Below are positions 54,901 through 57,900 of a DNA stretch of 64,000 bases, one piece after another. Within the stretch, counting starts at the first letter, position 1, and every line of letters starts with the position of its first letter. The DNA is from Thermoplasmata archaeon. Lineage in GTDB: Archaea > Thermoplasmatota > E2 > JACPAO01 > JAHFTW01. Location: assembly GCA_034667725.1 (NCBI GenBank), contig JAXDQS010000004.1, positions 30,973-94,972 of the forward strand, read 5' to 3'. Position numbers and translations under genes: made by a program. Under the pieces are notes generated by a model, which saw only the letters and a list, made by a program, of their open reading frames with translations, did not search any database and was not told the DNA's origin.

Positions 54901-57900
54901 TTGGCGTCCTCGTCGCCAAGCAGCAGCACGGGGCCGCGGCGCAGGCGGTTGTCCTGGTCGGGCAAGTCCTGGGGCCGCAGCATCGGGACACGACGGACGA
55001 TGGTGCCGGTGGGCTGGGTGGCGCTCGGCGTCGCGGCCGGCAGCGCGGCAACGGGAGGCGCCGTCGCCTGGGCCGAGTGCGCAAGGACGAAGCCGGCGAC
55101 CTTCCGGAGCGTCGGGTAGTCCTTGATCTGGAGCCCTTCGACCATTGGGATGCCGTAGGTCGCGCGGACCTCGCCGAACAACTCAGCTTGCTTGACGGTG
55201 TCGATGCCGAGGTCGGCCTCCATGTCAAGGTCGGGCTCCAGCATCTCGGCAGGGTAGCCGGTCTTGGCGGCGACCATCTGGACGACCTGCTTCAGCACCG
55301 CGTCGGGGTCGACGCTGGCGCCCGACCGGACCACGGATTTCTCGGATTGCACGGACACCTTCGGTTCCGTGGAATCCGTGACATCCGTGGTGGGGCCCGC
55401 CGCCAAAGGCGCGGTGCCCCCAATCCGGGCCTGCACGTAGCCCGCCACCTTCGACAGCGTCGGGTAGTCCTTGATCTGGATGCCCTCCTCCGCCGGCAGG
55501 CTGTAGGCCTCGCGGATGGCGCCGAACAATTCGGCTTGCTTCACCGTGTCGATCCCCAAATCGGCCTCCATGTCGAGGTTAGGGTCCAGAAGCTCCTTCG
55601 GGTAGCCGGTCTTCTGCGACACCAGGTCGATGAGCTTCACCAGCACCGCGCCGTCCGCGATGGAGTGCGACGGCGGCATCGGCACGCCGGTCTGCGCCGT
55701 CGCCTCCGGCCTCGGGCTCGCCGCGGCGACCTGGTAGGCCGTCGCGGTCGGCGCCGGCGGCGGGGGCAAGGCGGGCGAAGCGCCGCCGAGCCGGCTCGTC
55801 ACGTAGCCGGCGACCTTGCGGAGCGTCGGGTAGTCCTTGATCTGGATGCCCTCCTCCGCCGGCAAACCGTAGGCTTCGCGGATGGCGCCGAACAGCTCGG
55901 CTTGCTTGACGGTGTCGATCCCCAGGTCGGCCTCCATGTCGAGGTTGGGGTCGAGGAGGTCCTTCGGGTAGCCAGTCTTCTGCGACACCAGGTCGATGAG
56001 CTTGGGCAGCACCTCGTCGGCGCTGGCCGTCCCCCTAGGCACAGAGTCCACCGGCTTTGCAGGGACAATCGCCACTGGCGTCTGTGGAATCTGGGTGAGG
56101 ACGGGCCTCGGCGCGACCGGCTTGCGCGCCGGCGGGCCTTGGTCCACGATGCGCAGCGTGCGGCTCGTGACCTCGGTGCGCGCGTTCGGCAGCCCCGACA
56201 CTTCGCCGAGCCACGCGGAGTAGCGCTGCGGGTCGGCGATGCGCTCGGACTCCTTCGCAACAAGCTCGGTAAGGCTCATGGCGACCTGGGAGCCGAAGCC
56301 GGCCGCCAGGCGGAGGGCGTAGCGGGCGTTGTAGGCGCCGCCCTTCGAGAGGTTGAGGTCCCCAAGCTCGGGGTCGGGGTCGCGGAAGTTGGCGATGGGC
56401 GGCACCATGCCGCGCTGGAGGCACTTGAGCACGATGGCGTCCTCGACGCCGGCGCCCTGCGGGTGGCCCGTGAAGCCCTTGGTGTTGGCGACGATGACCT
56501 TGTTGGCCGAGGCGCCGAAGGTGGCGCGCAAGGCGTGGATCTCCGCCGACGCCGAGCCGCCGCGCGCCGGCGTGTAGGTCTCGTGCGACATGAAGATGGT
56601 CTGGGACGCGATCGACTCGGCCGTGACGCCGTAGCGGGCACGGGCGGACTCCAGCATGGCCTGCATCTCGCCGGCGATGTGGCCGACGTCGAGGCGCGAG
56701 CCGTGGAACGCCGAGTTGCTGACCCGGGTCGCAAGCAGCCGCGCGATGGGGCGCATGCCGCGGCGGGTGCACTCGGGCACGGCCTCGATCACCAGGCCGA
56801 CGGCGCCCATGCCGACGATCATGCCGTGGCGGCGCTTGTCGAACGGAAGCGCTGCCTCGCGGACGTCGGGCTTGGTGGTGGCGGCGCCCGAGGCGAGGAA
56901 GCCGGCGCCGATCCACTCGAACATGGCGTCGGAGGTGACGTCGTCCGCGCCCACGACCAGCACGCGCTTGCAGCGGCCGGTGCGGATCCAGTCCTCGGCG
57001 ACGGCGATGGCCTGCGTGGTGCTGGCGCACGCCGCGTTGACCTGGGTGTTCGGGCCGCGCGCGCCGATGAACTGCGCGAGCTGCGAGTGGCCCATCGAGA
57101 GCACGTTGAACAGGAACTTGCGGTTGAACTCGTAGCGCTTGGCGGGGTCGGCGACACCGGCGTCGCCGAGGCGGGCGAACTCGTGGTCGAACGCCTCCTG
57201 CAAGCGGGCGCGGGCCTCGCCGTCGGTGACCAGGCCGATGAGCTCGTTGTAGAGCGCCTGCAATTCGGCGCGGCTGCGGCCCGAGTACTTGTCCGAGAGG
57301 TAGCGCGACACGTCCCGCAGCAGGTTGTCGTAGCCGGGGAACGCGGAGGCGAACACGATGCCGGTCTCGTCGCGCATCGGCTCCGGCAGCTTCCACTCCT
57401 TGGGCAGGTAGCCGCCTTGGCTGGTCTGGAGGTAGGTGCGCACCAGCGGGATGCCGGCGTCCCGGAGCGCCTCCAGCCCGGCCGCGATGGCGTACTGGAA
57501 GGTGCGGTCGAGCGAGTCGGCCAGCTCCTTGTCCACGCCGTAGTCGGCGACGTCGAAGCCGCCGCGACGCCCAGCAAGCTGGATGACCTGGGCGATGTCG
57601 GAGATGACCTGGAACTGCGCCGAGCCGTCGCCGCCCTTCGAAAGGCGGACGATGTTCTTGTCCACGATCTTGTGGCGCTCGGCCTCGGGCAACTGGTCGA
57701 TGAGGTTCTCGCCCCGGAGCACGCGGTCCCAGTTGTCGTCGGCGAACAGCGGCTTGGACACGCCGGGAAGGCCGACGCTGATGCCGGAGATGCCGATGTC
57801 GTCGAGGTTGAAGCCGAAGGCGGCGAGGCGAGACCGGACGGCCGCCTCGACCGACGCTGCATCAACCACGGAGCCCACGGATTGCACGGGCGCCTTGCGG

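Follow-up and report, generated by a model that had tools for sequence, protein, structure and literature searches.

Threonine in place of the acceptor serine in the tandem carrier domains of a Type R lipid synthase from an archaeal genome

A megasynthase with three threonine-bearing carrier domains

We analysed a 64,000-nucleotide stretch of a Thermoplasmata archaeon genome (assembly GCA_034667725.1, contig JAXDQS010000004.1, positions 30,973 to 94,972; hereafter the window). Its minus strand encodes a megasynthase with three acyl carrier protein (ACP) domains in tandem and a C-terminal phosphopantetheinyl transferase (PPTase) domain. All three ACPs carry a threonine at the position of the serine that is modified in carrier proteins. 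A serine acceptor is taken for granted in carrier-protein biochemistry, in the site annotation of PROSITE and Pfam, in PPTase engineering and in the mining of biosynthetic gene clusters, and a carrier domain with threonine is normally scored as inactive.

Pfam and NCBIfam profiles gave the domain order ketosynthase (KS1), acyltransferase (AT), second ketosynthase (KS2), three ACPs, ketoreductase (KR), dehydratase (DH) and PPTase (Table 1). The likely true start of the gene is the ATG at 60845 (MSSGPEF...), within an open reading frame (ORF) whose third-position G+C is 0.96 in a window of 71% G+C. The protein is colinear with homologues at two metagenome loci (L001 and L002), in another Thermoplasmatota genome (L004), in Roseiflexus sp. 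(L077) and in a genome assigned to Heimdallarchaeota (L011). A 3810-residue ORF on the plus strand (51726-63158) was rejected as a gene; it lies antisense to the synthase and to the neighbouring carboxyltransferase and is a mirror frame of the kind common in high-GC DNA.

Catalytic motifs are intact in KS1, KS2, AT, KR and DH, and judged from these motifs all of the partner domains look active. The translation of KS1 reads the cysteine motif DAACASS and the histidine motifs EAHGTST and KSNMGH; the AT has GHSLGE and AAFHS and is of the malonyl type; and the DH carries HKVDGVPYLP (HxxxGxxxxP). KS2 has the cysteine motif NAACAST together with SHETYTP and NTKGFTGHP. The domain at this place has been named 'CLF' (chain-length factor; Shulse & Allen, PMC3098273), a label that we rejected for KS2 since the cysteine and both histidine motifs are present in the window protein and at both metagenome loci. 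The retention of these motifs indicates that the enzyme may have two working ketosynthases.

The Pfam PP-binding profile (PF00550) matched three stretches of the protein (71.1 bits; cut-off 20.8). All three repeats share the sequence ...DMEADLGIDTVKQAELFG... and follow the wider pattern KTGYPxxLLxPxLDMEADLGIDTVKQAELFG...IKDYPTL. Where the acceptor motif D-S-[LIV] has serine, each repeat has threonine (DLGIDTVKQAE), and phmmer alignment with solved ACPs (PigH, Aquifex ACP and CurA ACP) placed this threonine on the modified serine of DLGxDS. An AlphaFold2 model of ACP1, built from a 20-sequence alignment, had a mean predicted confidence (pLDDT) of 88.5, with helices at residues 5-20, 41-55 and 71-81, and matched solved ACPs with Foldseek template-modelling (TM) scores of 0.83-0.87. 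The model has the four-helix bundle of an ACP with the attachment residue at the N terminus of helix II; the threonine (residue 41 of the model) is the first residue of this helix, the canonical spot of phosphopantetheinyl-serine.

The three threonine codons lie exactly where the first-pass annotation of the window had located them. In a DNA alignment the repeats show a mean column identity of 87%, and synonymous differences are numerous both within the motif and beside it (GAC/GAT, CTG/TTG/CTC, GGG/GGC, ACC/ACG, GTC/GTG, GCC/GCT, GAG/GAA). These differences, together with the non-identical threonine codons, rule out both a sequencing error and a very recent duplication as the origin of the threonine, as that annotation had also concluded.

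The PPTase domain was recognised by the Pfam ACPS profile (PF01648; 43.6 bits, cut-off 25) and by phmmer against Sfp (1QR0/4MRT; E about 1e-6), while the profile for the N-terminal lobe, 4PPT_N, scored 17.2 bits (cut-off 27). In the alignment with Sfp, the domain shows the motifs ISHQG, GVDLE and WAAKEAALK and keeps residues equivalent to H90, D107, E109, E151 and K155. Matches to the fungal fatty acid synthase (FAS) structures 6U5W, 6U5V and 7BC4 were weak (E about 0.06-0.12). The alpha subunit of fungal type I FAS likewise carries a C-terminal PPTase on a megasynthase with its own ACP; however, its transferase is AcpS-like and trimeric, its domain order is different and its ACP is of the serine type. 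In the enediyne synthases (PKSE; SgcE, CalE8 and DynE8), which are iterative and ordered KS-AT-ACP-KR-DH, an integrated C-terminal PPTase primes the enzyme's own ACP. They share this layout with the window protein, but have a single serine-type ACP, no second KS and no acetyl-CoA carboxylase (ACC) genes in their clusters, whereas the window protein has three ACPs and KS2.

Table 1. Coordinates of the megasynthase, its domains and other genes of the window
Feature	Position	Strand	Details
Megasynthase ORF	51918-60971	-	3017 residues; ORF list and translation, Pfam domains
KS1	59382-60815	-	Residues 53-530; Pfam ketoacyl-synt and Ketoacyl-synt_C
AT	58104-59039	-	Residues 645-956; Pfam Acyl_transf_1, 154.6 bits; NCBIfam FabD-like match
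KS2	56112-57806	-	Residues ~1056-1620; multiple alignment, BLASTP to L001/L002, second stretch of Pfam ketoacyl-synt, ACP_syn_III
ACP1	55788-56033	-	Residues 1647-1728; Thr1687, codon ACC at 55911-55913
ACP2	55422-55667	-	Residues 1769-1850; Thr1809, codon ACG at 55545-55547
ACP3	55074-55319	-	Residues 1885-1966; Thr1925, codon ACC at 55197-55199
KR	53757-54425	-	Residues 2183-2405; Pfam KR, 101.8 bits; catalytic Tyr in DYSAAN
DH, PKS type	52659-53510	-	Residues 2488-2771; Pfam PKS_DH_N and PS-DH
PPTase, Sfp type, C-terminal	51921-52490	-	Residues 2828-3017 (Pfam ACPS 2828-2982)
Acyl-CoA carboxylase carboxyltransferase subunit	61506-63191	-	Pfam Carboxyl_trans, 649 bits; directly upstream of the megasynthase
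BioY biotin transporter	51038-51916	-	Pfam BioY; directly downstream of the megasynthase; same place in L004
Biotin carboxylase	49458-51040	-	Pfam Biotin_carb_N, CPSase_L_D2, Biotin_carb_C; same place in L004
Biotin carboxyl carrier protein	48961-49464	-	~167 residues; Pfam Biotin_lipoyl; EAMKMQN motif
ZPR1-domain protein	25425-26075		Homologue names
RPA-like OB-fold protein	27037-28365		
AbrB-PhoU fusion	24259-25338		
Tpt1	45915-46796		

Family membership and the distribution of threonine and serine

By its architecture and host range, the window protein belongs to the family named 'Type R secondary lipid synthase'. This family was defined by a pfaA homologue of the order KS-MAT-KS/CLF-ACP(3-6)-KR, where MAT is a malonyl acyltransferase, followed by a PPTase, in Koribacter, Solibacter, Elusimicrobium and Roseiflexus (Shulse & Allen 2011, PMC3098273). 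According to the same study the Type R product is not known, the PPTase is adjacent in all five genomes considered, and one cluster, that of Koribacter, has an ACC gene inside it. Pfam matches in the window protein follow this domain order. A PPTase also follows, as a fused domain in the window protein, L004 and the Heimdallarchaeota locus L011 and as an adjacent gene of its own in L001, Roseiflexus sp. L077 and loci L092 and L105; every cluster inspected had one. The Roseiflexus locus encodes an acyl-CoA dehydrogenase, a colinear 2963-residue synthase whose KS2 shares 53% identity with that of the window, and the PPTase. Relative to the clusters described earlier, the window differs in having DH and PPTase fused into one protein, in its flanking ACC and BioY genes, in the active-site cysteine of its 'CLF' and in its archaeal host.

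The family is thus already catalogued but uncharacterised, and threonine at the acceptor position has, as far as we found, not been described before. The word 'threonine' has no occurrence in Shulse & Allen 2011 (PMC3098273), and no later work on Type R clusters was found in the open-access literature. While the observation of the first-pass annotation was correct, it had omitted the cataloguing as Type R, the serine-type members described below and the archaeal host.

The best NCBIfam match of the megasynthase was PfaA (TIGR02813), the synthase of polyunsaturated fatty acid (PUFA) clusters. This identity was rejected, as the score fell below the cut-off (945.4 versus 1010.1 bits), none of pfaB, pfaC and pfaD is adjacent to the megasynthase and no PfaC- or PfaD-like ORF was found among the window ORFs scanned. 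PfaA and its PPTase PfaE share with the window system the KS-AT-ACPn-KR-DH backbone, tandem ACP arrays with the signature KTGYPxEML...(D/E)LGID-x-[IV]K, and a dedicated Sfp-type PPTase. In contrast, PfaA ACPs have serine (DSIKRVE) and PfaA lacks a KS2 between AT and ACPs.

The distribution of threonine was surveyed with an alignment of KS2 as the seed, since the motif itself biases any search made with the tri-ACP region. The survey covered one genome for each GTDB species and gave 591 confirmed matches, and the best 80 loci were retrieved with flanks. The motif G[IV]DTVKQAE occurs 242 times in 73 of these 80 loci, nearly always immediately 3' of KS2; in the remaining seven, the contig ends within ~400 bases past KS2. 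With the two metagenome loci added, 253 of 253 ACP copies at 75 loci have threonine, and a serine codon (TCN or AGY) was found at this position in none of them. The codon is ACA or ACT in 37 copies and ACC or ACG in the remainder: the residue stays constant while its codon varies. Hosts of the 73 informative species genomes come from eight or more phyla of bacteria and archaea (Chloroflexota, Acidobacteriota, Myxococcota, Spirochaetia, Binatia, Rhodothermales, Actinomycetota (Solirubrobacteraceae), Thermoplasmatota and Heimdallarchaeota). Across the loci sampled, the conservation of threonine is far beyond chance, which marks it as a family trait and not a local oddity. Among these loci, the check on fixation that the first-pass annotation had proposed came out in favour of a fixed threonine. 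A locally degenerate or pseudogenised ACP was rejected on the same count of copies and loci.

Broader searches reached serine-bearing relatives. The tri-ACP search yielded 1169 proteins, and the best 120 of these have the motif 369 times with threonine and 25 times with serine; the serine-bearing matches that we read (P0040, P0059, P0086 and P0096) have the PUFA-type DSIKRVE and are 32-36% identical to the query. When ACP1 was compared exhaustively by phmmer with 1.84 billion cluster representatives, 727 proteins passed E<=1e-30, and many of these were 2000-4000 residues long. Eight sampled matches of lower identity comprised two threonine variants (DTVKQVE and DTITQIE) and six serine types (DSIKKAQ, DSIKQVE, DSVKRVE and similar). 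One metagenomic tandem-ACP protein (P0026) has the degenerate copies DLGVDPVKQAE and DLGVETVKQAE beside normal threonine copies, a sign that selection may be relaxed on single, redundant domains of an array.

Serine does occur in close relatives. A scan of metagenomes, confined to the serine pattern G[IV]DSVKQAE, found 25 stretches. Several of these belong to a low-GC marine clade, from which L086, L092 and L100 were examined. L100 encodes KS-AT-KS2-ACP2-KR-DH with a FabI-type reductase gene upstream and, at 37-40% identity, runs colinear with the window protein; the ORF layout of L086 is alike, and L092, whose contig begins inside the gene, has AT-KS2-ACP2-KR-DH followed by its own PPTase. 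In their folded core the serine-type ACPs of L100 are ~75% identical to those of a threonine-type TARA protein, P0046 (...DQDLEGELGIDTVKQAEIMADIR... versus ...NQDLEGELGVDSVKQAEIMADLR...). Related ACPs at two further loci (L083 and L105) read DLGIDSVKQAEI.

None of the loci is mixed: the serine loci examined have no threonine copies, and the 75 threonine loci have no serine copies. The exchange of serine and threonine at an otherwise unchanged site, together with this lack of mixing, indicates that both states belong to one functional site whose state is set per system rather than per domain. Serine-type members are rare in what was sampled. Free alternation of the two residues, which the first-pass annotation had named as grounds for refutation, was rejected on these data.

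The PPTase of the serine-type locus L092 (6673-7446) reads SISTS versus SISHS, so that threonine replaces the equivalent of Sfp H90 in this single case (n=1); in PPTases of the threonine clade this position is histidine. The change may or may not be related to acceptor specificity.

A candidate acceptor for a dedicated transferase

Threonine is probably the 4'-phosphopantetheine acceptor of a dedicated Sfp-type PPTase. In the model that we propose, the co-encoded carboxylase would supply malonyl-CoA to an iterative type I synthase, the cognate PPTase would transfer 4'-phosphopantetheine from CoA to the threonine hydroxyl, and the resulting holo-ACPs would serve the iterative KS/KS2-AT-KR-DH cycle. 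The transferase would be the synthase's own C-terminal domain in the window and the product of a separate adjacent gene in most bacteria, and it would be adapted to, or tolerate, the extra methyl group of threonine. The reason for using threonine is a matter of speculation: it could confer orthogonality to the housekeeping enzymes AcpS and AcpH, or a phosphodiester more stable towards beta-elimination.

Several observations support this model. The retained catalytic motifs of KS1, KS2, AT, KR and DH argue that the enzyme needs a thiol arm. The absence of mixed loci is as expected if the acceptor state is tied to one shared partner, and the residues next to the acceptor change in concert with it (SIKRVE versus TVKQAE). 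The concerted change and the all-or-none state of each locus together suggest co-evolution with one partner, for which the PPTase is the obvious candidate. Modification by the fused PPTase was one of three options raised by the first-pass annotation, and it is the option favoured by the invariant motif, the presence of a PPTase in every cluster inspected, the serine subclade and the apparently active partner domains.

Other points weigh against it. The first-pass annotation knew of no characterised threonine-acceptor ACP, and our search, limited to open-access full text, likewise found no experimental datum for, and no report of, threonine phosphopantetheinylation; the threonine in PMC12551638 is at a different ACP position. 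In Escherichia coli, the same serine-to-threonine change at the attachment site (ACP S36T) prevented modification and abolished function (PMC3340395), so at least AcpS-type enzymes reject threonine, whereas in the Type R family threonine is the conserved and selected state. All seven family PPTases that were aligned share GxDxE and WxxKEAxxK, and no residue that separates threonine-type from serine-type PPTases was seen in this seven-sequence alignment. Finally, the 80 loci surveyed are those nearest to the KS2 of the window, and more distant members were sampled sparsely.

It is less likely, and in our view doubtful, that threonine is modified through a general tolerance of Sfp-type enzymes and became fixed through historical accident, with no specificity co-evolved in the PPTase. 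The catalytic motifs shared by PPTases of both types, with no discriminating residue visible, agree with such tolerance, as does the interchange of serine and threonine between close relatives. However, a near-neutral variant should flip often, ACN to TCN being a single transversion, yet all of the copies surveyed kept threonine. The lack of mixed loci and the concerted change of neighbouring residues also speak against history alone, and AcpS does not accept S36T (PMC3340395).

The possibility that the ACPs remain unmodified, as structural or docking pseudo-ACPs with the chain held on CoA or on an ACP encoded elsewhere, appears more improbable still. It could draw on the report that archaea make fatty acids without ACP (bioRxiv 10.1101/2024.07.05.601840), on the failure of threonine as a substrate for E. 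coli AcpS (PMC3340395) and on the degenerate DPV and ETV copies in the P0026 array. However, an unused position would not remain threonine in every copy from eight or more phyla under a drifting codon, which is also why the scaffold option of the first-pass annotation is disfavoured. Moreover, the helix recognised by PPTases is invariant throughout, a PPTase whose catalytic residues are intact has been kept and even fused, the serine-type sister clusters share the architecture, and no other carrier gene was seen in Pfam scans of ~38 window ORFs or at L001 and L002.

That threonine bears another prosthetic group or is loaded differently, with ribosyl-dephospho-CoA as in CitD and MdcC or by direct O-acylation, is chemically possible but very improbable, since nothing specific favours it, the cluster conserves no transferase other than the Sfp-type PPTase, no CitX-, CitG- or MdcB-type gene was present among the scanned neighbours, and the active sites of KS, KR and DH in type I systems depend on a thiol arm that is long and flexible. 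Nor did the corresponding option of the first-pass annotation, loading by another route, gain support: no alternative loading enzyme was found among the scanned neighbours, and there is no family-specific conserved nucleophile, the invariant threonine and tyrosine elsewhere (KTGYP and PTL) being common to serine-type PUFA ACPs and hence structural.

Taken more broadly, we lean towards a view in which O-(4'-phosphopantetheinyl)-threonine is a natural, undescribed modification made by a dedicated PPTase clade and standard across a large family, and in which the archaeal operon is a self-contained ACP-dependent fatty-acyl synthase. If true, this would be a new post-translational linkage, present in a family whose species-level members number in the hundreds, and a whole class of lipid synthases would at present be mis-annotated by the available tools. 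The PPTase-carrier pair might then be orthogonal to both AcpS and Sfp, which would be useful for site-specific labelling and for pathway insulation.

Operon, archaeal host and possible product

The carboxyltransferase gene upstream and the BioY, biotin carboxylase and biotin carboxyl carrier protein genes downstream all have the orientation of the megasynthase (Table 1); the real start of the biotin carboxylase is at about 51040, at MKPLFRKILVANRGEIA. With ACC genes flanking the megasynthase in this way, the operon is predicted both to make malonyl-CoA and to consume it. The stop and start codons of megasynthase, BioY and biotin carboxylase abut or overlap (51916-51920 and ~51038), which suggests translational coupling within the operon.

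An identical operon order (carboxyltransferase, KS-AT-KS2-ACP4-KR-DH-PPT, BioY and biotin carboxylase) was found at 5061-18613 of a 143-kb contig from a Thermoplasmatota metagenome-assembled genome (MAG; L004), and the carboxyltransferase takes the same position in L011. The nearest relatives of KS2 (72-77% identity) are in five other Thermoplasmatota MAGs (L003-L007), and two loci (L009 and L011) come from MAGs assigned to Heimdallarchaeota. Named homologues of the ZPR1-domain protein in the window are nearly all from Thermoplasmatota, one being labelled only '[bacterium]'; the window's own copy lies on a contig of 107,877 bp. Together with the identical operon in L004, this places a bacterial-style type I synthase with ACPs, PPTase and ACC in physical linkage with archaeal genes. 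Archaea have been described as without FAS I, FAS II, ACP and ACP synthase (bioRxiv 10.1101/2024.07.05.601840). The operon in Thermoplasmatota and Heimdallarchaeota MAGs thus bears on the 'lipid divide', and raises the question of an ACP-dependent fatty-acid route in some archaea.

No enoyl reductase is fused to the window megasynthase. Elsewhere in the family, an acyl-CoA-dehydrogenase-like gene accompanies the synthase in L001 (3047-4681), L002 (2877-4508) and L077 (4981-6726), and a FabI-type gene does so in L100 (3511-4326). The synthase of the Heimdallarchaeota-assigned L011, of 3576 residues, has an extra N-terminal NMO domain (FabK/PfaD-like enoyl reductase; 4691-~6800). These three unrelated candidate reductases look like non-orthologous replacement of a reductase partner. 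From this pattern the system may be expected to run complete cycles of reduction, and hence to make a product of the fatty-acyl type.

In the window, an acyl-CoA dehydrogenase (35138-36253, minus strand) and a 4HBT-fold thioesterase (40525-41484, minus strand) lie 16-20 kb from the synthase and are not adjacent to it; they might act in trans, the former as a reductase and the latter in chain release. The metagenome cluster L001 is followed (15370-19677) by genes for a CDP-alcohol phosphatidyltransferase, an LPG-synthase-like membrane protein, a methyltransferase and a glycosyltransferase, a set that fits a membrane-lipid product.

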